Source: Treponemataceae bacterium
GTDB lineage: Bacteria > Spirochaetota > Spirochaetia > Treponematales > Rectinemataceae
Assembly (NCBI GenBank): GCA_963678065.2
Contig: CAXXVZ010000004.1
Location: 32,001-96,000 of the forward strand
Direction of reading: 5' to 3'
Length of the DNA: 64,000 nucleotides
Part shown: in pieces, positions 11,830-55,157 of the stretch
Layout: every line of letters begins with the position of its first letter
Position numbering within the stretch: the stretch's first letter is position 1
Translations under genes and position numbers: made by a program
The notes under the pieces: model-generated
Databases searched by the model: none
Told to the model about the DNA's origin: nothing
Seen by the model: the letters and a program-made list of their open reading frames with translations, nothing else

Positions 11830-11830
11830 A

Positions 11831-31098: not shown

Positions 31099-32499
31099 TT
31101 ACAGATCCGTTATCGTTCCGTTCGCGGCCTCGGCCGCGAGCCCCAGGGTTTCCGACAGGGTCGGATGGGGGTGGATGCTGCGGCCGATGTCTTCCATGTC
31201 GGCGCCCATCTCGATCGCCAGAGTGGCCTCCGCGATGAGCTCGCCGGCGTGGGGGCCGACAAGGGCCGCGCCGATTATCCGTTTCGTTCTCGCGTCGAAG
31301 AGGGCCTTGGTGAAGCCCTCGATGTTTCCCATGCTCAGGGAGCGCCCGCTCGCCTTCCAGGGGAAGGATCCGAGGATATACTCAATCCCCTTCTCTTTCG
31401 CCTCCTTCTCGGTCAAGCCCGTCCAGGCGAGCTCCGGAGAGGTGTAGGCGACAGAGGGGATGGCGAGGGCGACGAAGGCTGACGCGCGGCCGCAGGCGAC
31501 TTCCGCCGCCACCCTGCCCTCGTGGGCGGCCTTGTGCGCGAGCTGGGGGCCGGGCACGATGTCGCCGATGGCGAAGATGTTCGGCACCTTCGTTCTCATG
31601 CACTCGTCGACGGGAATGCGACCCTTTCCGTCCGCCTCAAGCCCAGTTTTTTCCAGGCCGATGAGGTCGGCGTTAGTCCTGCGGCCGACAGAGATGAGGG
31701 CCGCGTCGAAGAGCTCCTCCGCCTCGCCCCAGGAGACGCGTATGCCGCCTTCCTCCGCCCGCATCGCCGTCACCTTCGCGTTCAGAAAGACGCGCCAGCC
31801 TGAGCGCTTGTACTTCCGCTGGAGGACTTCGGCCAGATCGGCGTCGGCGGGCGGAACGAGGTGGTCCATCATCTCGACGATGGTGATCTCGCTGCCGAAT
31901 GCGCTGTAGACGGTCGCCATCTCGAGCCCGATGATTCCCCCGCCGAGAATGAACAGGCGTTTCGGGATCGAGTCGAGCCTGAGGGCGTCCGTCGAGTTCC
32001 ACACACGGCTGTCCCCGTGGGGAAATCCGGATATCTCTATAGGGCGCGAGCCGGCCGCGATGATGCACTGTCCGAAGTGGAGGCCAAGCCGCCCATCGGC
32101 CGTCTTCACCTCGAGGGTCGAAGAGGAGGAGAAGGCGCCTTCGCCCCGGATCACCTCTACCTTGCGGCGCTTCGCGAGGAATTCGAGTCCCTTGGTGAGG
32201 GTTCCGACGACGGAATCGCGCTGGGCCCTCACTCTGCCGAGATCGATGGCCGGCTCGCCGAATGAAAGGCCGTATTTCGCCGCCCCCCTGGCCTGCTCGA
32301 TGGTCTCTGCCAGGGTAAGGAGGCTCTTGGAGGGAATGCATCCGACGTTGAGGCAGACACCGCCCAGGGTCTGCCCCCTGTCGACGATGGTCACCTTCTT
32401 GCCGGTTCCGGCGAGGATGTCGGCCGCGCGGAAGGCGGCGGTGTAGCCGCCCGGCCCGCCGCCGAGCACGAGGATGTCGGTATCGAGTGTCGTGTTCAT
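31099..32499 (-). CDS. lpdA: Dihydrolipoamide dehydrogenase (E3)
   Basis: GGGPGGY, GGVCLNVGCIPSK, LAHKA, HPHPTLSE. Confidence 0.96.
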   Translation of the reverse strand: MNTTLDTDILVLGGGPGGYTAAFRAADILAGTGKKVTIVDRGQTLGGVCLNVGCIPSKSLLTLAETIEQARGAAKYGLSFGEPAIDLGRVRAQRDSVVGTLTKGLEFLAKRRKVEVIRGEGAFSSSSTLEVKTADGRLGLHFGQCIIAAGSRPIEISGFPHGDSRVWNSTDALRLDSIPKRLFILGGGIIGLEMATVYSAFGSEITIVEMMDHLVPPADADLAEVLQRKYKRSGWRVFLNAKVTAMRAEEGGIRVSWGEAEELFDAALISVGRRTNADLIGLEKTGLEADGKGRIPVDECMRTKVPNIFAIGDIVPGPQLAHKAAHEGRVAAEVACGRASAFVALAIPSVAYTSPELAWTGLTEKEAKEKGIEYILGSFPWKASGRSLSMGNIEGFTKALFDARTKRIIGAALVGPHAGELIAEATLAIEMGADMEDIGRSIHPHPTLSETLGLAAEAANGTITDL

Positions 32500-32525
32500 G
32501 ATCCTTCCTTGTCGGCCTCGCCCAT

Positions 32526-33929
32526 TCAGATGAGGAGAGCGGCCGGATCGCCCATGAGGGCCGCGAAATGGCGGCAGAACCGCGCCCCCTCGGCCCCGTC
32601 GATCGCCCTGTGATCGTAGGACAGCGAGAAGGGAAGCACAAGCCGCGGCAGGAAGCCGCCGGACTTTTCATCCCAGACAGGCCTCATCGTCGCACGCGAG
32701 AGCCCGAGAATGGCGACCTCGGGCGGATTGATGATGGGCGTGAAGGCCGTGCCGCCGATACTCCCGAGGCTCGAAATCGTGAAGGTCGAGCCGGTCATGT
32801 CGTCGGGCGTGAGTTTTCCGGCCGCGGCCTTGGCCGAGAGTTCCTTCAGTTCCGCGCCGATCTCCCGAAGGCTCTTTTTGTCCGCTCCCTTGATCGAGGG
32901 AACGAGGAGCCCCGCCTCGGTCGATACCGCGAAACCTATGTTGTAGTATTTCTTGACGGCGAACTCTCCCTTTTCCGGAAGAAGGGTCGAGTTGAAGAGA
33001 GGGAATGCCTTGAGCGTCGCGACGCTCGCTTTTATCGCGAAGGCCAGAGCCGTGAGCTTGATACCCTCGGCTTCGAGATGCCGGTTCGAGCGCGAGCGGA
33101 AAGCCTCGAGCTCCGTGATGTCGACCTCGTCGAACTGGGTGACATGAGGAATCGTCTGCCAGCTCTCCGCGAGGCGCGGGCCGGAGAGGCGCTTGATGCG
33201 CGATGCGGGGACGATTTCGATTTCGCCGTATTTCCTGAAGGATTCGGGATCGACGGGGGAGGACTTCCTGAGGACATATGCCGCGTCGCCTCCGGTCCCG
33301 GACGGAAGGCCCGACTGGAGCGCCGCGAGGCGCGCCTTGACGTAGACGGCCACATCCTCGCGCCTGATCCTGCCCTTCGGCCCCGTCCCTCTCACGAAGG
33401 CGAGGTCGGCGCCCAGCTCGCGGGCGAAGAGCCTCACCGAGGGGGAGGCGTGGTAGAGCCCGTGCCCGGACGACGAAGGCGCTGTCTCCGGTTCCGGCGC
33501 GGACTCCGCCGTCCTGCCCATCCTGTCCGCCGGCGCAGGCAAAGGCGAGGGCGCGGATTCGGCGGCCATGGGCATCGGGGAAGCAGAAGCGGGGCCGGCC
33601 TCCTCAGAGGCCGGGATCTCCTCGGCGGTCGAGCTTTCTTCGGAGGCCGCGACCTTTTCGGTGACTGCGGCCTTTTCGGGGGCCTCCCCTTCCAGCTCGA
33701 GTGTCCCGAGGAGGTCGCCCTCCGAGACCTTGTCGCCGCGCACCACACTCACCGTGAGGACCCTGCCCGATTCGGGCGCGGGCACCTCGATCACAGCCTT
33801 CTCCGACTCGAGCGAAACCATCGGATCGTTCTTGGCGAGCGGAGTTCCGGCCACCATGAAAATCTCGACGACGGGAACTCCCGAGAAATCGCCGAGCTTC
33901 GGGACCCGCAGTTCCATAGTTCGTACCAT
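32526..33929 (-). CDS. aceF: Pyruvate dehydrogenase E2, dihydrolipoamide acetyltransferase (single lipoyl domain)
   Basis: ESEKAVIEVP lipoyl site, ASPSVR..GTGPKGRI, FTPIINPPE, SYDHRAIDGA. Confidence 0.95.
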   Translation of the reverse strand: MVRTMELRVPKLGDFSGVPVVEIFMVAGTPLAKNDPMVSLESEKAVIEVPAPESGRVLTVSVVRGDKVSEGDLLGTLELEGEAPEKAAVTEKVAASEESSTAEEIPASEEAGPASASPMPMAAESAPSPLPAPADRMGRTAESAPEPETAPSSSGHGLYHASPSVRLFARELGADLAFVRGTGPKGRIRREDVAVYVKARLAALQSGLPSGTGGDAAYVLRKSSPVDPESFRKYGEIEIVPASRIKRLSGPRLAESWQTIPHVTQFDEVDITELEAFRSRSNRHLEAEGIKLTALAFAIKASVATLKAFPLFNSTLLPEKGEFAVKKYYNIGFAVSTEAGLLVPSIKGADKKSLREIGAELKELSAKAAAGKLTPDDMTGSTFTISSLGSIGGTAFTPIINPPEVAILGLSRATMRPVWDEKSGGFLPRLVLPFSLSYDHRAIDGAEGARFCRHFAALMGDPAALLI

Positions 33930-33940
33930 GCTGTCTCCCT

Positions 33941-36664
33941 TCAGACGGAAAGCCGATCCGGCCTGTCCGCGTCGATCCCGTAGATCTCCAGCGCCTTGAC
34001 GGGCGCGTCGGAGCCGATATCGCCCGCTTCCTTCAGGGCAGTCAGAGCGGCGAGCGCGATATGTCGGCGGTCGACTTCGAAGAAATCGCGCAGGGCTGTG
34101 CGCGTGTCGCTGCGCCCGAAGCCGTCCGTGCCGAGTACGGTGAGGGGCATCGGGACGAGACGCCGGACCTGTTCGGGGTAGGCGCGGATGTAATCGGTCG
34201 CGATGACGGCTGGCCCCGCGCGCCCAGAAAGCTGCGCGGTCATGTACGGAATACGGGATGGCTCAGCCGGGTGGAAGCGGTTCCAGCGCTCGGCCTCTAT
34301 GCCGTCCCGGTGGAGCTGGTTGATGCCGGGCAGGCTCCAGATGTCGGCTCCGACGCCGAAATCCGCCGCGAGCAGTTCTGCCGCCGCGATGACTTCGTTC
34401 AGAATGGCGCCGGAACCCATGAGCTGGACCCGCGGGCCTGGTGCGCCCGGCCCCGACAGGCCTGCCGCGGCGGCCTCGCTCTCCGTTCCAGCTCCGGATC
34501 CCGGCCGGGCCATTGTCGACCTGAGAAGGTACATGCCTCTGATTATGCCTTCCTCGGCCCCGGCGGGCATGGCGGGCTGGACGTAGTTCTCGTTGAGGAG
34601 GGATATGTAATAGTAGACATCCTCCTCGTCGCGGTACATCCGCCTCATTCCGTCCTGGAGAATGACGGCGAGCTCGTAGACGAAGCCCGGGTCGTAGGAG
34701 CGGCAGTTCGGGATGGTGGCCGCGAGGAGCTGACCGTGGCCGTCCTCGTGCTGGAGACCCTCGCCGTTGAGGGTAGTCCGCCCCGAAGTGGCGCCGAGGA
34801 GGAAGCCTCGGGCCCGGGAGTCGCCCGCGGCCCAGGCCATGTCGCCGATTCGCTGGAAGCCGAACATCGAGTAGAAGATGTAGAAGGGCATCATGTGGAC
34901 GCCGTAGTTGGCGTAGGCCGTGCCGGCCGCGATCCAGGAGGCCATGGAGCCGGCCTCGGTTATGCCCTCCTCCAGAATCTGGCCGGCGGGGTCCTCGCGG
35001 TACCACATGATGGATTCGGAGTCCTCGGGCTGGTAGAGCTGTCCCGCAGGCGAGTAGATGCCTATCTGGCGGAAGAGGCCCTCCATGCCGAAGGTTCGAG
35101 CCTCGTCGGCGACGATGGGCACAACCTGCTTTCCGATGTTTTTGTCTTTGACGAGGGTGTTGAGGAAGCGCACGAAGCCCATCGTCGTCGACATCTCTTT
35201 CTCGCCGGAACCCCCGAGGAGTCCGGCGAAATCAGAGAGGGGCGGGACCGCCGCAGGGCCGATCTTCCCGCGCCGCGAGGGAAGGTGGCCGCCGAGTTTT
35301 TCGCGCTGCCCGCGGATGAACGCGCCCTCGTCGCTTCCCGGAGCGGGTTTTATGAAGGGCAGAGCCTCGAGCTCCTCATCCTTGAGCGGGACGTGGAAGC
35401 GGTCCCGGAAAACCACGAGGGAGGCCAGGTCCATGCTCTTCTGACTGTGGGCGATGTTGGCCGACTCGCCGGAGCGACCCATGCCGTAGCCCTTGACCGT
35501 CTGCGCGAGGATGAGGGTGGGCTGTCCCCTGTGCGCCACTGCGGCCGCGTAGGCCGCGTACACCTTCCTGGGGTCGTGCCCGCCCCGCGACATCTGCTTC
35601 AGCTCCTGGTCGCTCATGTCCGCCACGAGCTCCGCGAGTCGGGGATCGCGGCCGAAGATCTTTTTCCGGATGTAGGCTCCGTCGCGGGAACCGATGGCCT
35701 GGAGTTCACCGTCGACCATGTTCCCGAGCGTCGCAAGGAGGATTCCATCTTTGTCCCGCGCGAGGATCGGATCCCACTCGCTTCCCCATATGACCTTGAT
35801 CACGTTCCAGCCGGCGCCGCGGAACACGCCTTCGAGTTCCTGGACGATCTTGCCGTTGCCGCGCACCGGGCCGTCCAGCCTCTGCAGGTTGCAGTTGATG
35901 ACGAATATGAGGTTGTCGAGCTTCTCGCGCGCCGCGAGGCTGATCGCTCCCCGGGTTTCCGGCTCGTCGGTCTCCCCGTCGCCGATGAAGGCCCAGACTT
36001 TCCGGCCCCCCGTTTTCGCGAGTCCGCGCGCCTCCATGTACTTCATGAATCTCGCCTGGTACATGGCGTCGATGGGGCCGAGTCCCATGGAGACCGTCGG
36101 GAATTCCCAGAAATCCTTCATGAGCCAGGGATGGGGGTAGGATGAAAGTCCGGTCCCGTCGGCTTCCCTCCGGAATTTTTCGAGGTCGGCTTCTTCGAGC
36201 CGCCCTTCGACGAAAGCCCGGGCGTAGATGCCGGGCGCCGAATGTCCCTGGAAGTAGACCATGTCGGCGCCGTTCTCCGCGCCGGGGCCCCTGAAGAACC
36301 AGTTGAAGCCGACCTCGTAGAGGACCGCCGAGGAGGCGAAGCTCGCTATGTGGCCGCCGATGCCGTGGAAATCCCGGTTCGCGCGCGCGACCATGGCCAT
36401 GGCGTTCCAGCGGACATAGGCCCCGACATTGCGCGCAACGAGGCTGCCCGCGGGTATTTTCCGTGATTTTTCCGGCGCTATCGTGTTCGCGTAGGCTGTC
36501 GTGGCGTCAAAGGGAAGGGCGACTCCACGCGAAAAAGCCCTGTCGGCGAGTCGCTTCAGGAGGAACTCCACCTTTGCCGGGCCTTCCGCCTCCATCAGGG
36601 CGTCGAGAGCTTTGAGCCACTCCTGGGTTTCTTCCGCATCCTGGTCCAGGAAGTTTTCCTCCAT
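33941..36664 (-). CDS. aceE: Pyruvate dehydrogenase E1, homodimeric type
   Basis: ETQEWL, GGHIASFAS, FPTVSMGLGP, GDGETDEPE, NCNLQRLDGPVRGNGK, YSMFGFQR, GTDGFGRSD. Confidence 0.97.
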   Translation of the reverse strand: MEENFLDQDAEETQEWLKALDALMEAEGPAKVEFLLKRLADRAFSRGVALPFDATTAYANTIAPEKSRKIPAGSLVARNVGAYVRWNAMAMVARANRDFHGIGGHIASFASSAVLYEVGFNWFFRGPGAENGADMVYFQGHSAPGIYARAFVEGRLEEADLEKFRREADGTGLSSYPHPWLMKDFWEFPTVSMGLGPIDAMYQARFMKYMEARGLAKTGGRKVWAFIGDGETDEPETRGAISLAAREKLDNLIFVINCNLQRLDGPVRGNGKIVQELEGVFRGAGWNVIKVIWGSEWDPILARDKDGILLATLGNMVDGELQAIGSRDGAYIRKKIFGRDPRLAELVADMSDQELKQMSRGGHDPRKVYAAYAAAVAHRGQPTLILAQTVKGYGMGRSGESANIAHSQKSMDLASLVVFRDRFHVPLKDEELEALPFIKPAPGSDEGAFIRGQREKLGGHLPSRRGKIGPAAVPPLSDFAGLLGGSGEKEMSTTMGFVRFLNTLVKDKNIGKQVVPIVADEARTFGMEGLFRQIGIYSPAGQLYQPEDSESIMWYREDPAGQILEEGITEAGSMASWIAAGTAYANYGVHMMPFYIFYSMFGFQRIGDMAWAAGDSRARGFLLGATSGRTTLNGEGLQHEDGHGQLLAATIPNCRSYDPGFVYELAVILQDGMRRMYRDEEDVYYYISLLNENYVQPAMPAGAEEGIIRGMYLLRSTMARPGSGAGTESEAAAAGLSGPGAPGPRVQLMGSGAILNEVIAAAELLAADFGVGADIWSLPGINQLHRDGIEAERWNRFHPAEPSRIPYMTAQLSGRAGPAVIATDYIRAYPEQVRRLVPMPLTVLGTDGFGRSDTRTALRDFFEVDRRHIALAALTALKEAGDIGSDAPVKALEIYGIDADRPDRLSV

Positions 36665-36963: not shown

Positions 36964-37986
36964 ATGGCGTCAAAAGGCTCCTACATAATCGTGGGCGAGA
37001 ATATTCACTGCACGCGCATCCGAATGGCGACGGGCAAATTCGTCACGACCCTGAAGGACGGGCGGAACGCCCTCGTCTTCAAGGCGGACAAGGAGACCCG
37101 GCATCTGCCGATCCCCGAATCATTCATCGCCGGAGACGAATGGCAGAACGGAAAGATCAAGCACGTGGCGGTGGCCATCCACCAGGGTATGTACGGCTCC
37201 GACGAGGACAAAGAGGCCGGAAGGGCCTATCTCGTCGCCATGGCCCGTGAGCAGGAGGCCGCCGGCGCCTGGTTCCTCGATGTGAACGTGGACGAATTCA
37301 GCCACGACAAGAGCGAAAAAATCAAGGCGATAGAGTGGACGGCATCGCTGCTCCAGTCGGCCGTGAGCCTGCCCCTCAGCATCGATTCCTCGGATCCCGG
37401 CATCCTCAAGGCCGGACTCGAAGCCTGCGACGCGGCGAAGGGCAAACCCCTCGTCAACTCGGTGTCCCTCGAACGGGCAAGCATGATTCCGATCGCCGCG
37501 AAGGCGGACGCCTGCGTCATTGCGGGAGCCACCGGCGAAAGCCGCATGCCCGAAACTGTCGACGAGCGGGTCGCCAATATCGGCCGGCTCATGTCGAGGC
37601 TGGAGGACGAAGGTTTCGCCCGCCGGGACATCTTCCTCGATCCCCTCGTCATGCCCGTGTCCGTCAATACGCAGAATCCTTCCCTTGTCCTGGAATCGGT
37701 GCGCATCCTGCGCTCGGCCTACGGCGAAGCCATCCACTTTGCGCCTGGCCTGAGCAATGTATCCTTCGGCCTTCCGAAGCGGAATGTCATCAACCAGACC
37801 TTCGCCTGGCTCTGCCTCCGGGAGGGCTGCGACGGCGGAATCGTCGATCCCATGCAGATCAACGACTCGGTCCTCGGCTCCATCGATTTCAACGATGAAT
37901 TCTACAGGCTCGCAAAGGATTTGCTGCTCGGGAACGACGAGTATGGCATGAACTTCATCACCGCTGTCCGCGAAGCGAAAGCCTGA
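36964..37986 (+). CDS. Pterin-binding methyltetrahydrofolate:corrinoid methyltransferase (AcsE/MT2-like)
   Basis: IIVGENIH, GAWFLDVNV, PLSIDSS, LVNSVS, FLDPLV, GLSNVSFGLP, GIVDP. Confidence 0.85.
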   Translation: MASKGSYIIVGENIHCTRIRMATGKFVTTLKDGRNALVFKADKETRHLPIPESFIAGDEWQNGKIKHVAVAIHQGMYGSDEDKEAGRAYLVAMAREQEAAGAWFLDVNVDEFSHDKSEKIKAIEWTASLLQSAVSLPLSIDSSDPGILKAGLEACDAAKGKPLVNSVSLERASMIPIAAKADACVIAGATGESRMPETVDERVANIGRLMSRLEDEGFARRDIFLDPLVMPVSVNTQNPSLVLESVRILRSAYGEAIHFAPGLSNVSFGLPKRNVINQTFAWLCLREGCDGGIVDPMQINDSVLGSIDFNDEFYRLAKDLLLGNDEYGMNFITAVREAKA

Positions 37987-38003
37987 AGACCGGGAGAAAG
38001 ACC

Positions 38004-38801
38004 ATGAGACAACATATAGAGAACAAGATCTACCATGTCGAGATCCTGCCCCCGAAGCAGGATACCGAGAAACTCGAGGCCGACATGGAAAATTTCGCAG
38101 TCAAATTCAACCGCGTGATGGAGAGCGGCTACTGCGCCTGCATCACGGACAACGCCATGGGCAATCTGGCCTTCCAGGGCACCGAGATGATCGTCGAGCT
38201 CGGACTCGAGCCCAAGACCGACATGGTCCTCATACATCTCAATACTTTCCATACAAAAGAGAACCTTCACGAGATACTGGACGCCTGCGCCGCGAAAAAC
38301 ATCCACAACCTTCTTGTCATTTCAGGCGATGGTTCGGACCGACTCCCGCGGCTCTCTCCCGAGGACATCGGGGAGAAAGGCATCGAGGCGGTGACCTCGG
38401 TCGAGCTGCTCCGGTACATCGAGCGCGAGTATCCGGGCGTTTTCAACATGGGCGTGGCCTTCAATCCCTACGAGCCGGAAGAGCACGAGTTCGACAAAAT
38501 GAGGCGGAAGATCGACGCGGGGGCCCGGTTCATCATCACCCAGCCTGTGATCGAGCGCCATCCGGTCGTGGACAGACTCCTCGCCGCGTATTCCGGGATG
38601 CCCGTCATCGTCGAGGCGTGGATGAGCAAGAAACTCAGCCTGCTCTCGGAGGCGGTGGGCTATGAAATCCCCGAAGGCACGCCCTACGACCCCATGGCAT
38701 GTCTCCGAACACTTCACATCAACTATCCGAAATGCGGCATCTACCTGGCCCTCCTCGGTTTCAAGACCCAGTACGACCTTCTGGCCGGGTCCTGGAAATG
38801 A
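38004..38801 (+). CDS. metF: Methylenetetrahydrofolate reductase (short MetF-like)
   Basis: EILPPK, ITDN, IHL, LVISGD, GVAFNPY, KIDAGARFIITQP. Confidence 0.82.
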   Translation: MRQHIENKIYHVEILPPKQDTEKLEADMENFAVKFNRVMESGYCACITDNAMGNLAFQGTEMIVELGLEPKTDMVLIHLNTFHTKENLHEILDACAAKNIHNLLVISGDGSDRLPRLSPEDIGEKGIEAVTSVELLRYIEREYPGVFNMGVAFNPYEPEEHEFDKMRRKIDAGARFIITQPVIERHPVVDRLLAAYSGMPVIVEAWMSKKLSLLSEAVGYEIPEGTPYDPMACLRTLHINYPKCGIYLALLGFKTQYDLLAGSWK

Positions 38802-38811
38802 GGGGCGCGGC

Positions 38812-39609
38812 ATGAAGATCGTCGTCTGCATCAAGCAGGTTCCCGGAACGAACGACGCGAAGATCGATCCTGAAACCAAGAGAATCATCCGCGAAGGCAT
38901 AAAGGCGACCATGAACCCCTTCGACACCTACGCGCTCGAAGAGGCTGTCCGGATAAAGGAAAAGATCGGGGGGGAGGTCATCGCCCTTTCCATGGGACCG
39001 CCCCGCGCCGACATCGTCCTCCGCGAGGCGATTTCCGTCGGGGCCGACAGGGGCATCCTCCTGAGCGATCGGGCTTTCGGCGGATCGGACACATGGGCGA
39101 CGAGCTATGCCCTTTCGAGGGCTGTGGAGAAGATCGGCGGAGTCGACCTCGTGATCTGCGGCAAGCAGGCCATCGACGGCGATACCGCCCAGGTCGGCCC
39201 CGGAATCGCAGCCCAGCTGAGCTGGGCGCAGGCTACCTATGTCATGGCCATCTCGGGAATAGAGCAGGGGGAGGGAGGGACGTTTCTGGCCAAGCGCATG
39301 CACGAGGATGGCTTCGATATCTGCCAAGTCAGCTTCCCCGTCGTCGTCACGGTCGTGAAGGATATCAACCAGCCCCGGATTCCCACCCTCAAGGGCCGAC
39401 TCGCCGCGCAAAAATGTGAAGTCCAGGTCTGGACAGCGGCGGATATCGGAGCGGAACCCGATAAAATCGGCCTCGACGGATCGCCGACACGGGTAGTCAA
39501 GACCAACCCTCCCCCCGCGAGGAAAACCAACACGCTCAAAGTTTCCGGGACGGCGGCGGAATGCGCCGAAGCTCTCCTGCGCAAGCTCAGATCGATGAGC
39601 CTCGTGTAA
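38812..39609 (+). CDS. etfB: Electron transfer flavoprotein beta subunit
   Basis: MKIVVCIKQVP, NPFD, MGPP, SDRAFGGSDT, GKQAIDGDTAQVGP, GSPTRV. Confidence 0.95.
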   Translation: MKIVVCIKQVPGTNDAKIDPETKRIIREGIKATMNPFDTYALEEAVRIKEKIGGEVIALSMGPPRADIVLREAISVGADRGILLSDRAFGGSDTWATSYALSRAVEKIGGVDLVICGKQAIDGDTAQVGPGIAAQLSWAQATYVMAISGIEQGEGGTFLAKRMHEDGFDICQVSFPVVVTVVKDINQPRIPTLKGRLAAQKCEVQVWTAADIGAEPDKIGLDGSPTRVVKTNPPPARKTNTLKVSGTAAECAEALLRKLRSMSLV

Positions 39610-39645
39610 CAGCGCAACCACAGCTTTCCTTAGGAGCACGAACCG

Positions 39646-40662
39646 ATGATCGCGAACACCGATGAATTGAGAAAAGCATACAGCAATATCTGGGTCATGG
39701 CGGAAGTTCAGGGGAACCGTATCCAGAAAGTGACCTTCGAACTCCTCGGGGCCGCGAGGTCCCTCGCCGATGCCCGAAAATCCGAGCTGTGGTGTGTCGT
39801 TCTGGGCACGGGACTGGAGCCGGAACTGGAGGCCCTTTTCCACGGAGGAGCCGATGTGGTCCTCGTCGTGGACGACCCGCGATTCGCCGAGTTCGTGGAC
39901 GAAGACCAGGCGGCCGTCCTCGTTCGCCTGATGAAAACACACAGACCGGAAGTCGTCGTGTGCGGCGCCACGACGCGCGGTCGCGCCCTCATTCCCCGCG
40001 TGGCGGTCCGGGCCAACTGCGGACTCACGGCCGACTGCACCGGCCTCGGCATTGACCCCGAAAACGGTGATCTTTTGCAGACTCGGCCCGCTTTCGGGGG
40101 AAACATAATGGCCACCATCAGGTGCTCCAACCACAGACCCCAGATGGCCACTGTACGGCCGCGCGTCATGAACGCGCTCGCGCCTGATCCCTCCAGGACC
40201 GGCCGCATCCTCCGCGAAACCTTCCTCGACTCCGAAGAAACAAAGCTGAAAAAGGTGATCGAGATCTTCCACGACACGGAGAACACCGTCAACCTGGCCG
40301 ACGCCCGCTTCATCGTCTCCGGCGGACGCGGCATGAAGGGGCCGGAGGGCTTCAAGCTCCTGAAAAGCTTCGCCGAGCACGTCGGCGGAGCGGTCGGCGC
40401 CAGCAGGGCCGCGGTCGACTCAGGATGGGTTCCCTACAGCCATCAGGTGGGCCAGACCGGTCAGACAATACAGGCCCAGGTATATGTCGCCTGCGGGATC
40501 TCCGGGCAGATACAGCACCTGGTCGGCATGCAGTCCTGCGACTACATCATCGCCATCGACAAGAATCCGGACACCCCGATGATGCAGCTGGCCGATCTCG
40601 CCATTACCGGCGACCTCTTCGAAGTGATACCCGAGCTCATCCGCCGGCTCGCGGAGACTTGA
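39646..40662 (+). CDS. etfA: Electron transfer flavoprotein alpha subunit
   Basis: GLTADCT, RPAFGGN, MATVRP, SGGRG, GASRAAVD, QVGQTG, GISGQIQH. Confidence 0.95.
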   Translation: MIANTDELRKAYSNIWVMAEVQGNRIQKVTFELLGAARSLADARKSELWCVVLGTGLEPELEALFHGGADVVLVVDDPRFAEFVDEDQAAVLVRLMKTHRPEVVVCGATTRGRALIPRVAVRANCGLTADCTGLGIDPENGDLLQTRPAFGGNIMATIRCSNHRPQMATVRPRVMNALAPDPSRTGRILRETFLDSEETKLKKVIEIFHDTENTVNLADARFIVSGGRGMKGPEGFKLLKSFAEHVGGAVGASRAAVDSGWVPYSHQVGQTGQTIQAQVYVACGISGQIQHLVGMQSCDYIIAIDKNPDTPMMQLADLAITGDLFEVIPELIRRLAET

Positions 40663-40874
40663 TCCCGCGGAGTCCTGCCCCTGAGGAGTCCTGACCCGGC
40701 CATTCGTTGCGATCCCATCCCCCGCTCCCCTCTTTAGCGTCCGGCCGACTCCGCGAAGGCATCCAGTCCGGAAAAGTTTGCCGCGTCGGAGACGAATGCG
40801 GCTTGTCCTCCCGGCGGCGACGCGCTATACCCTTCAGGGACGGAGCACAGCGCATGCGAGAGGATTCAGGGCAC

Positions 40875-42218
40875 ATGAGCGATCGATTCGGGTCCACGGA
40901 GGAGGCCTACAACCTGAGGACAGCCCTCAGGAAGCTCGAGCACTATTCCCGCGCCGCGGGCGTATCCTCCCGGCTGATCGACGAAAAGGGTCAGTCCCTC
41001 GGCGTCTTCGACCACGAAGGCAATCCCCTGCCTCAGACCACAGAAAATCGGGACTGCGGCTGTGTCGTATCCGGCATTCTCGGGGGCGATGAACCCGGGG
41101 AAGACCTTCGGGCCCATCTTTTCGGGGCCTTCCAGGCCGAACGATTCGGGGGAAAATACATCCAGCTCTGTCCCCATTCCCTGCTGTTCTGGACTGCCCC
41201 GATCATCGTCGACGGCATCATGCGGGCATCTTTCATCGGCGGCCCCGCGATGGTGGTGGATCCGAAGGAAGTGTTCGAGGAGCTTCTGTCGTCCGGCCGC
41301 ATTCCCGCGGGCAAGGAGCGCGAAATCCGCGCCGCACTGGAATCCGTTCCCCGGATCGAGCCCTTGCGGGCGGCGAGCCTGGCCGAGATCCTCGCCGACG
41401 AGGCGGCCGCTGTCTGCGTCGCCCGGCCGGATCAGCTCGAGGCCAACCGCGGGCGCCAGGAACAGCAGGCGCGCATTTCGGAGTACATCCACGGAATAAA
41501 AACGGAAAATGACGGTTCCGATGGCTCCCCCCCCTATCCGATCGAGAAGGAGCGGGAACTCCTCCTCCTCATTGCCGGCGGGAACAGGCCCGAGGCCCAG
41601 CGCCTGCTGAACGAGATACTCGGCCACATTTTCTTTTCGAGCGGCCAGGATCCCGGCGTTCTCAAGGCGCGCGTCCTCGAACTCGTCGTGTTGCTCTCGC
41701 GGGCCGCCCTGGACGGGGGCGCCGACATCGAGCAGATATTCGGGCTCAACTTTACCTATCTGAACCAGATACAGCGGATGAGGAGCGCGGACGAAATAGC
41801 GTATTGGCTGTCCCGGATCATGACCCGGTTTTCGGAGCTGGTATTCACGCTGAAAAACGTCAAGCACGCCAGCGTCATGCAGAACGCCCTGAAATACATC
41901 GGCGCCCGTTACACCGAAAACCTCACGCTCGACGACGTGGCCGGAGCGGTCTTTCTCAGCCCGACATATTTCAGCAAGCTGTTCAACGAAGAGATGAAGT
42001 GCCGGTTCACGACATATCTCAACAGTCTCCGGATCGCGAAGGCGAAGCTTCTGCTGAAGAATTCCGATATCTCCCTGGTCGACATAGCGGGACTCATCGG
42101 CTACGAGGACCAGAGCTATTTCACGAAAATGTTCAAGAAAATGACCGGCGTCTCGCCGGGGCGGTACCGCGAAGCGAAAGGCAGATCGGATGACAATCAA
42201 GAGATCCATGAAGAGTGA
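40875..42218 (+). CDS. AraC family regulator with N-terminal PocR-type ligand-binding domain
   Basis: CPHSL..APIIVDG..IGGP PocR pattern; C-terminal LSPTYFSKLF, GYEDQSYFTKMFKK.TGVSP. Confidence 0.85.
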   Translation: MSDRFGSTEEAYNLRTALRKLEHYSRAAGVSSRLIDEKGQSLGVFDHEGNPLPQTTENRDCGCVVSGILGGDEPGEDLRAHLFGAFQAERFGGKYIQLCPHSLLFWTAPIIVDGIMRASFIGGPAMVVDPKEVFEELLSSGRIPAGKEREIRAALESVPRIEPLRAASLAEILADEAAAVCVARPDQLEANRGRQEQQARISEYIHGIKTENDGSDGSPPYPIEKERELLLLIAGGNRPEAQRLLNEILGHIFFSSGQDPGVLKARVLELVVLLSRAALDGGADIEQIFGLNFTYLNQIQRMRSADEIAYWLSRIMTRFSELVFTLKNVKHASVMQNALKYIGARYTENLTLDDVAGAVFLSPTYFSKLFNEEMKCRFTTYLNSLRIAKAKLLLKNSDISLVDIAGLIGYEDQSYFTKMFKKMTGVSPGRYREAKGRSDDNQEIHEE

Positions 42219-42352
42219 TCCGCGCGGTTTTTTAAGGTGAGCGCGGTGCGGGGGACGGGCTTTGAGTCGCGAATGAGGGTCTGCGGAAAAAGAAGCGCAT
42301 AGGCTTCCGCGCGATCCTGATGTGGTACTATGCTCGAAAGAGGGAGGATCCG

Positions 42353-45109
42353 ATGGCCCTGTTCCCGCGCAACCTCGGAGCCCTGGCTGGGAAGCCGGCA
42401 GGCAGCACAACAAGACCGGACCCGGAGCATGAAAAACGGCTCCGGAGTATCTGTGCCGTCTCCGTGGACGAGGCTCTGACCGAGCTCGAATCCCGGAAAA
42501 CCGGCCTCTCCGCAGAGGAAGCCCGGGACAAGATCCACCGCTTCGGCCCGAACGTCCTCGCGAGCGAAAAGAAACGCGGATTTCTCCTCCAGATTCTGGA
42601 TCGCTTCAAGGATCCCCTCGTCATCCAGCTTCTCGTGATCGGCCTCATCTCGTTCGCGATGGGAGACATGAGGGCCGGCGTCGTCGTTTCGGGGATGATT
42701 TTCATCAGCGTCTTCATCGCCTGGTTCCAGGAAAGGCGCTCGGGCGAGGCCGCGGAAAGGCTTCGCGCGATGGTCCAGGCCAGCGCCGTCGCCCTGCGCG
42801 ACGGGGCGGAAGAGGAGATTCCCATAAGCGGAGTCGTACCTGGCGACATCGTCATCCTCGCCGCCGGCTCCATCATACCCGCGGACATGCGCATCCTCTC
42901 GGCGAAGGATTTCTTCGTCGCCCAGTCGGCGCTGACGGGCGAATCCATGCCGGTGGAGAAATTCGCCGGCCTTGAAACCTCCGTGCCGGCCGCGACAGCC
43001 ACCGCAGTGACCACAGCCCCCGCGGATGCTGTTGCCCGTCAGGCCGGCACCGTGCCCGCTGCCCCGGCCTCCTCGCCCGCGAGCGGAATCTTCGAAATCC
43101 CCGACGCCTGCTTCCAGGGCTCAACCGTCATCTCGGGCTCGGCGAAAGCCCTCGCCGTCAACACGGGCATGAGGACCTTCCTCGGCTCCGTGGCCGCGAA
43201 TCTCTCAGGGGAAAAAGGCTCCACCGATTTCGACTCAGGTATCCGCTCCTTCGTCGGACTCATGGTGCGCTTCATGATCATCATGGTCTCCCTGACCTTC
43301 CTCATAGTGGGACTCACCAAGGGCGACTGGGCCGAGGCCCTCCTCTTCGGCCTCTCCGTGGCCGTCGGCCTCACGCCGGAAATGCTCCCCATGATCGTCA
43401 CCGTCTGCCTCTCCAAGGGAGCCATCGCGATGTCCCGCAAGAAGGTCATCGTCAAGAAACTCAAGGCGATCCAGAACCTCGGGGCCATAGGCATCCTGTG
43501 CACGGACAAGACCGGCACCATCACCCAGGACAAGGTCATCCTCGAAAAACATGTCGACATCACGAACCGCACGAGCAGCGAAGTGCTTCTCTACGCCTGG
43601 ATGAACAGCTACTACCAGACGGGACTGCGCAACCTCCTCGACCTCTCGATCCTCTCCAACGAGGACCTCGACGTCGAGCGATCCTGCCGCAAGGTCGACG
43701 AGATCCCCTTCGACTTCACGCGCAAGCGCATGTCCGTCATCGTCGAGTACGAGGGCGCGAACGTCCTCATCTGCAAGGGAGCGGTGGAGGCGATATTCGA
43801 GACCTGCGACCGCTACCAGATCGACGACGACATCTTCCCCCTGATCGACATCATCCGCGACGACATCACCGAGGAATACTCGCGCCTCTCGGCCATGGGC
43901 TACCGCGTCCTCGCCGTCGCCTACCGCGAGTTCGAAAGCTCCAAAGAGAGCTTCTCCGCCCGCGACGAGACAGGCCTCATCCTCCTCGGGTACCTGGCCT
44001 TCTTCGATCCGCCCAAGGATTCCGCCGAAAAGGCGATAGCTTCCTTAGGCGAGCACGGCGTGCGCGTGAAAGTCCTCACCGGGGACAACGAACTCGTCAC
44101 GAGAAAGGTCTGCGCCGACGTGGGACTGGCCGATTCCCGCGTCATCACCGGGCGGGAGCTCGACGCGATGAGCCCGGAGGAGTTCAGGTCCGCCGCGCTC
44201 AGGCACGATGTCTTCGCGCGCCTCACGCCAGCCCACAAGGAAGGCATCGTCCGGGCGCTGCGCGCAGGCGGGCAGGTCGTCGGATTCATGGGCGACGGCA
44301 TCAACGACGCGGCCGCCATGCGGGCCGCGGATGTGGGCATATCCGTGGACTCGGCCGTCGATGTCGCGAAGGAATCGGCCGACATCATCCTTCTCGAGAA
44401 GAATCTCCTCGTCCTCGAACAGGGGATACTCGAGGGCAGACGGCTCTTCAACAACATCATCAAGTACATCCGGATGAGCGCGAGTTCGAACTTCGGCAAT
44501 ATGTTCTCGGTGATCGGAAGCGCCTTCCTCCTCCCCTTCCTGCCCATGGCGCCCATCCAGATCCTTCTCAACAACCTGCTCTACGATGTCTCTCAGACGG
44601 GCATCCCCCTCGATACGGTCGATCCCGAGAACGTGGCCCTCCCGCAGAAATGGGACATCTCGCTGATCCGGAAGTTCATGATAGCGGTGGGGCCGATCTC
44701 TTCGATCTTCGACTACGCGACCTTCGCCCTCATGTGGTTCGTATTCGGCTGCTCGGGGTGGCTCGCGCCGGGCGCCTCCGCGGCGACGAAGCTGCAGCTC
44801 GAAACTCTCTTCCACACAGGCTGGTTCGTCGAATCCCTCCTGACACAGACACTCATCGTGCACATCATCAGGACGAACCGCGTTCCCTTCATCCAGAGCA
44901 GGGCGAGCCTCCCCTTGAGTCTCACGACCCTGGCCGTCGCGGCGATCGGCATCGCCCTGCCCTACTCGCCCGTGGCGGGATTCTTCGGCCTCGCGCCCCT
45001 GCCCCCCTCATACTGGATCTGGATAGCGGGATTTCTCGCCGCCTACGGTGCGCTGACACACATCGTCAAAACCCGGTTCAACCGTCGCCATGGAGGGATC
45101 AAATCATGA
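42353..45109 (+). CDS. mgtA: Magnesium-translocating P-type ATPase
   Basis: TGES, VGLTPEMLPMIV, DKTGT, DEIPFDF, FDPPK, TGDN, GDGIND, ASSNFGNMFS, FHTGWFVES. Confidence 0.95.
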   Translation: MALFPRNLGALAGKPAGSTTRPDPEHEKRLRSICAVSVDEALTELESRKTGLSAEEARDKIHRFGPNVLASEKKRGFLLQILDRFKDPLVIQLLVIGLISFAMGDMRAGVVVSGMIFISVFIAWFQERRSGEAAERLRAMVQASAVALRDGAEEEIPISGVVPGDIVILAAGSIIPADMRILSAKDFFVAQSALTGESMPVEKFAGLETSVPAATATAVTTAPADAVARQAGTVPAAPASSPASGIFEIPDACFQGSTVISGSAKALAVNTGMRTFLGSVAANLSGEKGSTDFDSGIRSFVGLMVRFMIIMVSLTFLIVGLTKGDWAEALLFGLSVAVGLTPEMLPMIVTVCLSKGAIAMSRKKVIVKKLKAIQNLGAIGILCTDKTGTITQDKVILEKHVDITNRTSSEVLLYAWMNSYYQTGLRNLLDLSILSNEDLDVERSCRKVDEIPFDFTRKRMSVIVEYEGANVLICKGAVEAIFETCDRYQIDDDIFPLIDIIRDDITEEYSRLSAMGYRVLAVAYREFESSKESFSARDETGLILLGYLAFFDPPKDSAEKAIASLGEHGVRVKVLTGDNELVTRKVCADVGLADSRVITGRELDAMSPEEFRSAALRHDVFARLTPAHKEGIVRALRAGGQVVGFMGDGINDAAAMRAADVGISVDSAVDVAKESADIILLEKNLLVLEQGILEGRRLFNNIIKYIRMSASSNFGNMFSVIGSAFLLPFLPMAPIQILLNNLLYDVSQTGIPLDTVDPENVALPQKWDISLIRKFMIAVGPISSIFDYATFALMWFVFGCSGWLAPGASAATKLQLETLFHTGWFVESLLTQTLIVHIIRTNRVPFIQSRASLPLSLTTLAVAAIGIALPYSPVAGFFGLAPLPPSYWIWIAGFLAAYGALTHIVKTRFNRRHGGIKS

Positions 45110-45906
45110 GAAGTCTTTTGGATGCGCTCCAGGACGGACGCCTCGTCGAACTGCCCGATTGCGACAAGAAGCATGCCCTCGAACTGCTCGCCCTCATCAT
45201 CGAGGCCATTCCCGACATCGGCACGAAGACCGACCTCGTGAAGAACGTCATGGAGAGGGAGGAACAGTCGAACACGGGAATAGGGCGCGGCGTGGCCTGC
45301 CCGCACTGCCGTGTGGCGCTCGACGGGGAACTCCTGTGCGCTGTCGGATGGTCGCCCCTCGGCCTCGACTACGGCTCGCCCGACGGGAAAAAGGTCCACC
45401 TCCTCGTCATGTACTATGTGCCCGACGTGCAGAGGAACCTGTACCTGAAGGAAATTTCGGGGCTCGCGCGCGCGGTTTCGGCAGGCGATTCGATCGAGAC
45501 GCTCGCGACCTTGTCCGACATACAGACGGTGCGCGAAAAACTCCTCGACTGGGTGGGCATCGCGATCAGCGAGGCGAGCTCGGATGTCAAGGCGAGGATG
45601 ATAAAGCTCGAGGCGAGACAGGCCGCCGCCTCGGCGGCCATGGCCCTGCCTCCGGAAGTGGAGTCCATATCGGCCGCTGCCAGGATATTGCCCTTCCGCC
45701 TCGTGGCCTGGCCTTCGGGCCTCCTCGTCCTGTGCGCGGATGTCGCGCTCGCGGACAGTCTCGAGAAGCTCTCCGACCTCGGCCCGATGATCGAGGCCTC
45801 CCGGGAATTCGACGCGGCGGGTTTCAGGATCGCCGTACTCTCCCGCAGCGCCTACGCCGGCGAGCGCAGGGAGTACGAGGCGGTGGCCATCCAGCTGCGG
45901 CGCTGA
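45106..45906 (+). CDS. PTS EIIA (fructose/mannitol/Ntr family) domain protein with unknown C-terminal domain
   Basis: VMEREEQSNTGIGRGVACPH, GLDYGSPDGKKVHL; ATG overlaps the mgtA stop (ATGA). Confidence 0.82.
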   Translation: MRSLLDALQDGRLVELPDCDKKHALELLALIIEAIPDIGTKTDLVKNVMEREEQSNTGIGRGVACPHCRVALDGELLCAVGWSPLGLDYGSPDGKKVHLLVMYYVPDVQRNLYLKEISGLARAVSAGDSIETLATLSDIQTVREKLLDWVGIAISEASSDVKARMIKLEARQAAASAAMALPPEVESISAAARILPFRLVAWPSGLLVLCADVALADSLEKLSDLGPMIEASREFDAAGFRIAVLSRSAYAGERREYEAVAIQLRR

Positions 45907-46549: not shown

Positions 46550-48790
46550 ATGGATGTGACGGGAAAAGCAGCCTCAAACGGGCACAAGTGGAAATTCGTG
46601 CAGGTCGGAGGAGTTGATCAGGTCGTTATCAGGGATGGCGAGGATATCGCCCATATCCCCGAGCTGGATCAGAAACTCTGGGTCGCCCTCGCCATGCCTA
46701 AAAAAATTGCGGGTATTCCTGCCGAAACCCTCGATGCCCTCGACACGGACAAGGACGGCAGGATCAGAGCCCCGGAGATCATCGCCGCCATCCGTTTCCT
46801 GAAAGAGAGACTGTCCGGCCTGTCTCCCCTCTCCGTCCCTGGCGACTCTCTTTGCGTCACTTCCATCGCTCCGGCCGCATTGCGGGATTCTGCGCTCTGG
46901 ATTCTCGGCATGATCGGCAAGGACGGCGCACAGGAGATCGGCCTGGCCGACCTGGCCGCCGCCTCCGAGGTCTTCGGCCTCCAGCGCTTCAACGGCGACG
47001 GCATCATGCCTCCGGACTCCGCGGGGGAAGACTCGGCGAGCAGAGCCCTCATCGAGGACATCCTGAAATGCCTGCCGGGCGTCGCCGACGCGAGCGGAGT
47101 CCAGGGCGTCGATACCTCTGCCCTGGAGACATTCACTGCACAGGCACGCGCGTATGCGGCCTGGATGGACGCCTTCGCCGCCGATCCCCGGCTCAACACC
47201 TTCGGCGCCGCCGAAGGCGCCGTCGGAGGCAATGTTTCAGGCGCGCCGGCTGCAAACGATCCGGCATCCATGACCGCGAGCATCGCCGCGGCCGTCGCCT
47301 CCACGGAGGCGGTCCGCGCGAAGATCGACGACTGGTTCTTCCGCTGCCATCTCGCGGCGCTCGAGGGAGGCGCCCAGACCGATCCCTTCACCAACGGCAA
47401 GGAGGAGGATCGCGATCGTCTTCTCAGGACTTCCATCACCGTGAGCAACCCGGACCTCCTGTCCCTCCCGCTCGCCCGCATCGATCCTGCGGGAAAACTC
47501 TCCCTCAAGGGCCCATTCAACCCCGGCTGGACAACAGCCATGGCTGCATTCCGCAGCTCCGTGCTCCTGCCCCGCTCGGGATCGATTCCCGAAGTTCTCG
47601 ACTCAGACGGATGGGAAGACTTGAAAGCCGCCATCGCTCCCCTCGCGGCCTGGATGGCCTCGAAACCGGAGGGAGCCGTCGAGCTCCTCGGGCTCGCACG
47701 CATACAGGAGATTCTCGGGAGCGACGCGATGGCGCGTCTCGCCGCCCTCGTGGCCGAGGACGTGGCCTGGTCGGAAAAACGGCTTCTTATGGCCGAGCTC
47801 CGGAAGATGCTGCTCTTCCAGCGGGACCTGCCCAGAATCGTCAACAACTTCGTCAATTTTTCCGAGTTCTACAATCACAAATCCGCCGCCGTCTTCCAGG
47901 CAGGCACGCTCTACATCGACGGCAGAGCCTGCACACTCTGTCTGGAAGTCGACGACCCAGGCAGGCACGGCTCACTCGCGGGCATGTCGGCGACCTACCT
48001 CGCCTACTGCGCCTGCACCCGACCCGACGGGGCCAAGAAGACAATCGTTGCGGCTTTCACGGCGGGAGACGGGGATAATCTCTTCGTCGGCCGGAACGGC
48101 GTGTTCTACGACCGCGACGGAAAGGATTGGGATGCCACTGTCACCAAGCTCATGCCCCAGCCGATCAGCATCAGGGAGGCGTTCTGGAGCCCCTACAAGT
48201 GGCTCGGCAAGACCTTCGAGGAAATCGTCGGGAAACGGGCTTCCGCAGCCGACGCCTCCTCGCAGGCCAAACTCAAGGGTGCCACCGAGACGGCGGTCGC
48301 TGGCGTCGCCGACGGCAAGAAGGTCGAGCCGCCCAAGAAGTTCGAGGTCGGGACGGTCGCCGCCATCGGCGTAGCCCTCGGCAGCATCGGCGCCATGGTC
48401 ACGGGAATACTCGGCACCTTCCTCGGGCTCGGCGTCTGGATGCCGGCCGGCATCCTCGGGGCACTCCTCATGATCTCGGGTCCCTCGATGATCCTCGCCT
48501 ATTTCAAGCTCCGAAGGCGCAATCTCGGGCCCGTGCTGGACGCCTCGGGCTGGGCCATCAACGGCAGGCTCAAGATCAACGTACCCTTCGGACGGACCCT
48601 CACCTACACTGCGGCCCTCCCCTCCAACGCCGAGCGCTCCCTCATCGACCCCTACGCCGAGAAAAAACGCCCCTGGAAACTCATCCTCGCAGCCTCCGTC
48701 ATCCTTATCCTGGCCATCCTGTGGCTGCTGGGCGGCCTCAATCAGATACTGCCCAGAAACTGGTGGTACTCCACCCTCATCGGGAAATAA
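46550..48790 (+). CDS. Hypothetical membrane protein with an EF-hand-like loop
   Basis: 746-aa ORF with genome-typical codon usage and RBS AAGGAG; DTDKDGRIRAPE; three C-terminal hydrophobic segments. Confidence 0.8.
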   Translation: MDVTGKAASNGHKWKFVQVGGVDQVVIRDGEDIAHIPELDQKLWVALAMPKKIAGIPAETLDALDTDKDGRIRAPEIIAAIRFLKERLSGLSPLSVPGDSLCVTSIAPAALRDSALWILGMIGKDGAQEIGLADLAAASEVFGLQRFNGDGIMPPDSAGEDSASRALIEDILKCLPGVADASGVQGVDTSALETFTAQARAYAAWMDAFAADPRLNTFGAAEGAVGGNVSGAPAANDPASMTASIAAAVASTEAVRAKIDDWFFRCHLAALEGGAQTDPFTNGKEEDRDRLLRTSITVSNPDLLSLPLARIDPAGKLSLKGPFNPGWTTAMAAFRSSVLLPRSGSIPEVLDSDGWEDLKAAIAPLAAWMASKPEGAVELLGLARIQEILGSDAMARLAALVAEDVAWSEKRLLMAELRKMLLFQRDLPRIVNNFVNFSEFYNHKSAAVFQAGTLYIDGRACTLCLEVDDPGRHGSLAGMSATYLAYCACTRPDGAKKTIVAAFTAGDGDNLFVGRNGVFYDRDGKDWDATVTKLMPQPISIREAFWSPYKWLGKTFEEIVGKRASAADASSQAKLKGATETAVAGVADGKKVEPPKKFEVGTVAAIGVALGSIGAMVTGILGTFLGLGVWMPAGILGALLMISGPSMILAYFKLRRRNLGPVLDASGWAINGRLKINVPFGRTLTYTAALPSNAERSLIDPYAEKKRPWKLILAASVILILAILWLLGGLNQILPRNWWYSTLIGK

Positions 48791-51021: not shown

Positions 51022-51189
51022 GAATCCTCCTTGAAAGACCATCGCGCGCAAGAGGGTCCGGCGCTTCAATTTCCGCGGCCTTCCGCCACTTTTTCCGTCA
51101 CTTTTCCCGAAACGACCTCGTTGACCCCCGATCCCGCCCCATCTGGGTTTGTGCGCAGGGATAAAAACACGGATTGCACGATTCATCAC

Positions 51190-51246
51190 TTTACAGATAC
51201 GGAAAGAAGTGGTACTGTCGATTTTCATTACTTACTTTGTGAAAAT
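51190..51246 (+). promoter_or_regulatory. Putative promoter and operator of the transketolase/sulfo-TK operon
   Basis: TTTACA, 17 nt, (TGg)TACTGT, followed by inverted repeat ATTTTCA-N12-TGAAAAT. Confidence 0.45.
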
Positions 51247-51262
51247 AATTACGGAGGATATC

Positions 51263-52180: not shown

Positions 52181-52212
52181 TTCCGGCCCGCCTGACACCC
52201 AAGGAGACAGCA

Positions 52213-53151: not shown

Positions 53152-53162
53152 AGAGGTACACT

Positions 53163-55147: not shown

Positions 55148-55157
55148 GAAGGCGGGC

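Follow-up and report, generated by a model that had tools for sequence, protein, structure and literature searches.

A 64,000-nucleotide (nt) stretch of a Treponemataceae genome (Spirochaetota; assembly GCA_963678065.2, contig CAXXVZ010000004.1, positions 32,001 to 96,000 of the forward strand), hereafter the window, carries an operon in which a divergent methylene-tetrahydrofolate (THF) reductase gene, metF, is followed by the genes of both subunits of an electron-transfer flavoprotein (ETF), etfB and etfA. We propose, with a probability of roughly 0.55, that MetF and EtfAB form one complex oxidising methyl-THF to methylene-THF through confurcation with reduced ferredoxin and NAD+. The module is real and conserved, and it is a strong candidate for a new class of EtfAB partner. 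Within this proposal, the partnership of MetF with EtfAB is very probable, a mainly oxidative use is quite probable and the coupling to ferredoxin is likely. As the original prediction had described from the sequence, and as the open reading frame (ORF) coordinates confirm, four consecutive genes on the + strand are separated by gaps of 17, 10 and 36 nt and are followed by a PocR-AraC regulator:

36964..37986, + strand: methyl-THF:corrinoid methyltransferase (MT), AcsE/MT2-like pterin-binding barrel (340 residues; PF00809, E 1e-22)
38004..38801, + strand: metF, divergent MetF with the methylene-THF reductase fold, ETF-linked family (265 residues; PF02219, 49.7 bits)
38812..39609, + strand: etfB, bifurcating type, with a predicted bifurcating FAD (b-FAD) and NAD site (265 residues; PDB matches and motifs)
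39646..40662, + strand: etfA, bifurcating type, without N-terminal ferredoxin domain (338 residues; PDB matches, R147/R254 and clade)
40854..42218 (likely ATG), + strand: PocR-sensor AraC-family regulator (PF10114 and HTH_18)

The start of etfB is placed at 38812, where its homologues align; the position given by the ORF caller, 38662, is an in-frame ATG upstream.

The conservation of this arrangement was examined in the best 80 of 90 confirmed relatives from a genome scan, 74 of which are testable for metF-etfB adjacency given that six loci end too early. Indeed, etfB lies directly 3' of metF in 72 of the 74 (a script count of 71 plus L010, whose start/stop overlap had been removed by the filter), and the order etfB then etfA follows metF in 66/67 loci. 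With such adjacency in 72/74 testable loci, the metF-etfB arrangement is far beyond chance. The synteny that the original prediction had put forward as a check is therefore conserved, and the MetF carriers belong to six phyla (Spirochaetota, Bacillota, Planctomycetota, Lentisphaerota, Atribacterota and Actinomycetota). The closest MetF homologues are 74-78% identical and come mostly from Spirochaetota metagenome-assembled genomes (MAGs); a cultured carrier of this MetF is Clostridium thermosuccinogenes (P0087; MetF protein only). An MT homologue is found in 56/80 loci, either upstream, downstream or divergent, and since its position varies while the metF-etfBA order is kept, the fixed core of the module is metF-etfB-etfA. 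At least one folate or corrinoid gene is present in 68/80 loci, the neighbours being fhs (28), a corrinoid protein (12), a PocR regulator (12), folD (8), a formate channel (8), RACo (6) and a member of the URO-D/MtaA family (6). An acyl-CoA dehydrogenase gene occurs in 1/80 loci and an Ldh-type enzyme in 0/80. The distribution of the MetF family is patchy, as only 3/40 host relatives possess it. A hydantoinase/oxoprolinase-like gene also lies beside the cassette in 5/80 loci (L007, L016, L026, L040 and L043), and this recurring neighbour is possibly linked to an N-methylated substrate.

Natural fusions join MetF to each of the two ETF subunits. A search for longer proteins returned 43 matches, namely 12 MetF-EtfB fusions, 29 EtfA-MetF fusions, one apparently frameshifted MT-MetF-EtfB protein and one unrelated protein; several fusion clusters have multiple members (372 in P0156), and singletons could represent sequence errors. 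At locus L013 the MetF-EtfB fusion is an in-frame ORF of 532 residues, and the four MetF-EtfB fusions tested fall in four places of the MetF tree, at least three of which are forced by supported branches. By their source names, the EtfA-MetF fusions come mainly from MAGs of Clostridia, Lachnospiraceae and Oscillospiraceae. Two contigs of the eight, L107 and L110, are long, and on these the rumen operon displays the order etfB, etfA-metF, two URO-D/MtaA-like genes, MT, corrinoid protein and RACo. The AlphaFold2 model of the EtfA-MetF fusion P0156 shows well folded domains with a predicted local distance difference test (pLDDT) score of 91, and its predicted template modelling score of 0.56, obtained without EtfB, is uninformative on docking.

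The closest solved relatives of both ETF subunits are all bifurcating or confurcating ETFs. EtfB matches best CarD, Bcd-EtfB, Fix-EtfB and LctB in the PDB, at 205-232 bits compared to ~ 107 bits for canonical ETFs, and the top matches of EtfA are CarE, Fix-EtfA and Bcd-EtfA; the EtfB motifs KQVP, NPFD and GKQAIDGDTAQVGP, on which the original prediction had based the same resemblance, are present. The b-FAD motif D122-G123-D-T-A-Q-V-G-P130 is present in EtfB, with D122, G123, D124, T125, A126, Q127, G129 and P130 invariant in 61/61 rows, and G123 aligns with G123 of 4kpu_B, the residue reported to separate b-FAD binders from AMP binders (PMC12630350; see also PMC8958531). The NAD site RxFxG is found as R87-A-F-G-G91 (G91 invariant, R87 in at least 90% of rows), and the arm anchor as S224-P-T (P225 invariant, S224 and T226 each kept in 90% of rows or more). 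In EtfA, R147 and R254 are invariant in 61/61 rows, and R147, for which the alignment gives R146 in 4kpu_A and R203 in CarE, would be the equivalent of LctC R205, the arginine at N5 of the b-FAD. DGDTAQVGP, RxFxG, SPT and the EtfA arginine are given as the elements mutated in Ldh-EtfAB (PMC9232219), and all four of these mutationally tested bifurcation motifs are, judging from the alignments, kept by the ETF of the window. The ferredoxin domain is absent from the 338-residue EtfA, in which residue 11 aligns to residue 67 of CarE and residue 70 of LctC; hence a free carrier would be needed.

In an EtfA tree of 29 rows (LG+G4), the MetF-adjacent EtfA proteins form a single clade supported at 100/100 (9 rows), apart from the Ldh-linked (100/99) and the acyl-CoA-dehydrogenase-linked EtfA, and a quick tree of 56 rows again displays a separate MetF-linked clade (20 rows). 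The phylogenetic check proposed beforehand thus places MetF-adjacent EtfA in a clade of its own. In the EtfA-MetF fusions, the EtfA part clusters with the EtfA proteins linked to acyl-CoA dehydrogenases (87/91 and 93/91 support), which suggests a second ETF recruitment, although a single MetF-linked EtfA clade is not rejected (p-value of the approximately unbiased test 0.087, same 29 rows and model). Distance correlations of MetF with EtfB (0.76) and EtfA (0.79) exceed those of the MT/Fhs controls (0.57-0.72) by a small margin that shared ancestry confounds, and were not used. The original proposal that MetF is the partner of this ETF finds support in the synteny, the fusions to each ETF subunit, the dedicated ETF clade and the intact b-FAD and NAD motifs.

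MetF itself matches PF02219 with 49.7 bits, above the cut-off of 24, and its model (pLDDT 91) has top Foldseek matches that are all methylene-THF reductases (MTHFR), with template modelling scores of 0.61-0.71. Residues E13, D109, Q180, H78 and K169 are kept in 59/59 family rows. E13, D109 and Q180 align with E18, D109 and the ITQ motif of the Thermus thermophilus enzyme, so that the catalytic Glu28, Asp120 and Gln183 of the E. coli numbering are all matched; the roles of these Glu, Asp and Gln residues in catalysis and pterin binding are described in PMC11868366 and PMC9900621. In the MetF tree the family forms its own long-branch clade, apart from the MetV-linked and the YitJ-type MetF, a placement to which the usual long-branch warning applies. 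The beta2 loop reads TDN, as in 5/5 MetV-linked MetF, whereas solved NADH-using enzymes have T-Y/W-G; Asn50, kept in 59/59 rows, stands in place of the Gly of solved NADH types, and its position would correspond to that of Leu48 in S6MTHFR. This loop suggests, by inference only, that MetF takes no NADH directly.

The host genome (5 contigs totalling 5.27 Mb; completeness 99.94%, contamination 6.72%) was searched for the enzymes that could surround such a complex. It encodes Fhs, FolD, corrinoid proteins and, next to a regulator paralogue, RACo, as well as RnfD/NqrB-family genes, FeFe hydrogenases and ferredoxin oxidoreductases. Acyl-CoA dehydrogenase, the ETF-quinone oxidoreductase (ETF-QO) domain, MetV (PF12225), CdhC (acetyl-CoA synthase) and MttB were not found in it, and trimethylamine-type MttB methyl donors were dropped as candidates. 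Methionine supply was rejected as the role of the operon, since a homocysteine-methyltransferase/MTHFR fusion, separate from the operon MetF, adjoins metH. There are three ETF sets in the genome, the other two adjoining FAD-oxidase dehydrogenases, and no orphan dehydrogenase that would need the ETF of the window was encountered, contrary to the possibility, raised in the original prediction, that this ETF serves a dehydrogenase encoded elsewhere. The genome contains 36 URO-D/MtaA-family matches (two pairs may be split genes). MT, whose N-terminal extension is ~ 85 residues long and whose best PDB matches are 2yci AcsE and 4o0q, scores below the cut-offs of the AcsE families (NF005719, 189 bits vs 259; NF040758, 102 vs 370). 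Given these scores and the fact that CdhC was not found in the genome, MT probably has the role of an MT2 in a demethylase system and not that of the AcsE in the Wood-Ljungdahl pathway.

Furthermore, 50 of the 80 carrier genomes, chosen by hand, were searched: RACo was found in 49, the URO-D/MtaA family in 50, Fhs in 46, CdhC in 5 and MetV in 4. The URO-D family gave from 1 to more than 30 matches per carrier; it also includes true HemE and matched in 10/14 controls. Five of the six MetV matches adjoin another MetF, of the TDNQ type. RACo is present in 14/40 host relatives including 3 carriers, that is in 11/37 non-carriers, these kin not being independent. Considering that acetyl-CoA synthase was not found in the host, no bulk sink for methyl-THF is apparent there. 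Standard potentials are -320 mV for NAD and -420 mV for ferredoxin. With the folate couple at -200 mV (as given in PMC5861303), the computed cost of oxidising methyl-THF directly with NAD+ is +15 to +23 kJ/mol, the latter at standard values, and the confurcating oxidation comes to +4 kJ/mol at standard values and -27 kJ/mol at the cellular-type potentials of -280/-500 mV taken from PMC9304861. Owing to the missing acetyl-CoA synthase sink, the methyl-input and formate-output genes and these energetics, oxidation by confurcation is the likeliest use, and acetogenic carriers may run the complex in reverse. The original prediction had linked methyl-THF to NAD(H) and ferredoxin and left the direction open; the link is retained here, and the genome context would favour the oxidative over the reductive direction.

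In the proposed scheme, MtaA/CmuA-type methyltransferases, whose genes are present, would move methyl groups onto the corrinoid protein maintained by RACo, and the operon MT, as expected from its family, would pass the corrinoid methyl to THF. A hydride would then go from methyl-THF to the flavin of MetF, in which the catalytic residues are seen. By analogy with Ldh-EtfAB, the shuttle FAD of EtfA would deliver the MetF electrons one at a time to the b-FAD of EtfB, where they would be joined with the electrons of free reduced ferredoxin or flavodoxin, and two NAD+ would be reduced. Finally, methylene-THF would be converted to formate and ATP via FolD and Fhs, for which the genes are again present.

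Several observations weigh against this scheme and are considered here with the explanations that they concern. EtfA has no ferredoxin domain, although removal of that domain inactivates Ldh-EtfAB, and Pcd-Etf carries bifurcating-type motifs yet is described as not reducing ferredoxin (PMC5736913); bifurcating-type motifs alone are no guarantee of ferredoxin coupling. It is unlikely, all the same, that the two partners work without ferredoxin, with the ETF as a simple NADH diaphorase or as a shuttle that delivers to an acceptor of higher potential or to a different ETF-linked enzyme. The non-bifurcating Pcd-Etf would be one precedent, the Fusobacterium ETF that shuttles electrons from Ldh to Bcd another (PMC12630350), and type 4 MTHFRs oxidise methyl-THF with an acceptor given as unknown (PMC11868366). 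However, the Fusobacterium shuttle has a Phe at Gly123, where the EtfB of the window keeps Gly together with the other motifs, neither an acyl-CoA dehydrogenase nor an ETF-QO acceptor was found in the host genome, and the Bcd-type EtfA of 4kpu and 5ol2 are likewise without a ferredoxin domain. The same complex might instead run mainly reductively, NADH being bifurcated to methylene-THF and ferredoxin with methyl-THF as electron sink or methyl donor, which we regard as quite unlikely. At standard potentials that reaction would be near equilibrium (-4 kJ/mol), fhs and folD are found in 28/80 and 8/80 of the related loci, and the complex may run reductively in the 5/50 carriers that have acetyl-CoA synthase, among them two Treponema MAGs from termite guts. 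Against it, the large methyl sink is absent where that enzyme was not found, in the host genome and in 45/50 carriers, methionine synthase is served by its own MTHFR, and the reduction costs up to +27 kJ/mol at cellular-type potentials.

Other points bear on the partnership and on the substrate. Two testable PVC-group loci (L063 and L070) have this MetF without an adjacent ETF, and in that sub-clade metF lies beside fhs instead (fhs-metF-folD in L063 and L071, metF-fhs in L070), as it does in a rumen locus of 2.9 kb (L114; MT-metF-fhs, no ETF). One EtfAB, encoded elsewhere and with a ferredoxin domain, was found in each PVC sub-clade genome: the sole EtfAB found in G041 and G043 is of this type and falls outside the MetF-linked clade, and that of G042, not among the tree rows, is similar to it in sequence. 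In G044 an ETF of the cassette clade is present but unlinked to metF. These loci, and the fact that the LpdA/pyruvate dehydrogenase (PDH) genes adjoin the operon in the host, would fit a MetF that is merely co-regulated and acts alone or with another partner, the ETF serving a dehydrogenase encoded elsewhere. We hold this to be very unlikely in view of the two kinds of fusion, the dedicated ETF clade and the 72/74 adjacency, while lpdA is found in 0/80 related loci, for which reason LpdA/PDH was rejected as ETF partner, and the other ETF clients of the host have their own ETFs. As to MetF, it shares only ~ 20% identity with solved MTHFRs, carries Ser/Thr before the GD motif where these have Arg, and shows a conserved EAWMSKK in place of the Phe223 region, for which no reliable alignment was obtained. 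It falls below all NCBIfam MTHFR cut-offs (36 bits vs 294 for TIGR00676, the NAD(P)H-type E. coli equivalog), with a discrete score gap between the family and canonical MTHFRs. Such divergence could mean that the protein is an ETF partner for a different substrate, for instance another pterin or an N-methyl compound; with the pterin-binding Glu/Asp/Gln in 59/59 rows and a folate or corrinoid gene in 68/80 loci, this is most improbable.

Among known systems, the proposed MetF-EtfAB complex resembles Ldh-EtfAB (LctBCD of Acetobacterium woodii, PDB 7qh2), whose EtfAB is likewise of the bifurcating type and has the four tested motifs; a further likeness is the predicted confurcation, in which a substrate couple near -190/-200 mV and reduced ferredoxin would together reduce NAD+. 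The MetF-EtfAB complex differs in that its partner is an MTHFR-fold barrel instead of an FAD-oxidase, and in that its EtfA, without ferredoxin domain, belongs to a clade separate from the Ldh-linked EtfA. The closest solved EtfA and EtfB sequences are those of Bcd-EtfAB (5ol2, 4kpu), CarCDE (6fah) and Fix/EtfABCX (7koe); unlike in these, the high-potential couple would be methylene/methyl-THF, with acyl-CoA dehydrogenase and the ETF-QO domain not found in the host genome, and unlike CarCDE, the EtfA has no N-terminal ferredoxin domain. The predicted dependence of MetF on partner subunits for electrons is shared with MetFV-HdrABC-MvhD of Moorella, MetFV-RnfC2 of A. woodii and MetFV of C. ljungdahlii, as is the TDN loop with MetV-linked MetF; in contrast to these systems, no MetV gene was found in the host, the MetF clade is different, the ETF takes the place of Hdr or RnfC2, and the carriers mostly have no acetyl-CoA synthase. 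Moreover, an oxidative role downstream of demethylases with no direct use of NAD, predicted here, is described for the type 4 S6MTHFR of Sphingobium lignivorans (PMC11868366), which is however aerobic, served by THF-dependent demethylases and of unknown acceptor, whereas the present system would be corrinoid-dependent and ETF-linked; the two were compared at the Leu48 position only, the presumed counterpart in MetF being Asn.

The original prediction knew of no characterised complex of this kind, and none was found in the literature; the idea itself is older, an EtfAB-MTHFR pairing having been hypothesised for acetogens and judged unlikely in C. ljungdahlii, where free etfAB is absent (PMC8515935). 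In the available text of that source five MTHFR groups are listed, none with an ETF, and the ETF systems listed in that of PMC6085437 are Fix, Bcd, Car and Ldh. The accessible part of PMC9430772 does not mention Etf, and those of PMC7334858 and PMC11269201 hold nothing further on a MetF-ETF pairing. A full-text search of mostly open papers, with supplements outside its scope, returned no description of a metF-etfBA module, so a genomic mention elsewhere is possible.

Concerning the surroundings of the operon, a Pfam scan of 56 further, longer ORFs of the window found no acyl-CoA dehydrogenase, FAD-oxidase/Ldh, FixC, MetV, Hdr or Rnf domains, as had been stated beforehand. The accompanying claim that MetF is the only flavoenzyme encoded there failed: the aceE-aceF-lpdA operon (31099-36664, - strand), divergent from the metF operon, encodes the dihydrolipoamide dehydrogenase LpdA. 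It is an E. coli-type PDH operon, and the genome encodes FeFe hydrogenases and ferredoxin oxidoreductases as well. The PocR-AraC regulator begins 191 nt past the end of etfA and is probably its own transcript; it probably controls, as we infer, the corrinoid methyl-transfer system. Its paralogue (41% identical), near 262 kb of contig C4, stands between the RACo/corrinoid protein genes and CobW (L005:7650-12840, ~ 259.6-264.8 kb, the corrinoid protein being divergent from RACo), and regulators of this family seem to be associated with corrinoid methyl transfer. A promoter scan of the locus gave no signal above shuffles, and no + strand terminator was found past etfA. In four lake metatranscriptomes of one study, the PDH genes and the regulator were covered on the contigs of a close relative and the four genes were not, which is no evidence either way.

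Further along the window there are an MgtA-like P-type ATPase followed by a phosphotransferase system EIIA-domain protein with an unassigned C-terminal part (42320-45906, + strand), a 746-residue protein with C-terminal hydrophobic segments and zero Pfam matches (46550-48790, + strand), and a cluster of a split transketolase, RpiB, an aldehyde dehydrogenase-like protein, succinyl-CoA-ligase-like alpha/beta subunits and an SLC13 transporter (51149-58732, + strand); a second split transketolase with RpiB lies at 10136-12772. Elsewhere in the genome (L002:4330-10462, ~ 954-960 kb of contig C5) an FAD-oxidase, a CCG/Fe-S protein and an FGGY kinase accompany a divergent etfBA with DGETGQT instead of DGDTAQV. 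The 36 URO-D/MtaA matches stand against only ~ 3 stand-alone corrinoid proteins and one RACo, and several carrier genomes show similar expansions (more than 30 matches). In the PVC group, etfBA genes lie at L115:7419-9430, L116:1020-2997, L117:848-2857 and in L151, with no dehydrogenase among their scanned neighbours, nor among those of the sub-clade EtfAB; EtfA has a ferredoxin domain in L115-L117, and those of L115, L117 and L151 group in a separate clade (98/96).

The energetics of the methyl/methylene-THF step in anaerobes is a long-open question, for which the module offers a three-gene, Fe-S-free candidate for an ETF-dependent methylene-THF reductase, with natural fusions. The chances seem about even that it represents a new EtfAB-based bifurcating or confurcating class in which MetF is the catalytic partner, and which would be the ETF-dependent methylene-THF reductase hypothesised long ago. 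Mainly non-acetogenic fermenters of at least six phyla would then use it to turn corrinoid-captured methyl groups into formate with a gain of ATP, and MetF would twice have acquired an ETF as partner, with fusions to either subunit. If true, flavin-based bifurcation would gain a new class of partner, and fermenters in guts, digesters and sediments would seem to run a methyl-to-formate metabolism that has been overlooked.

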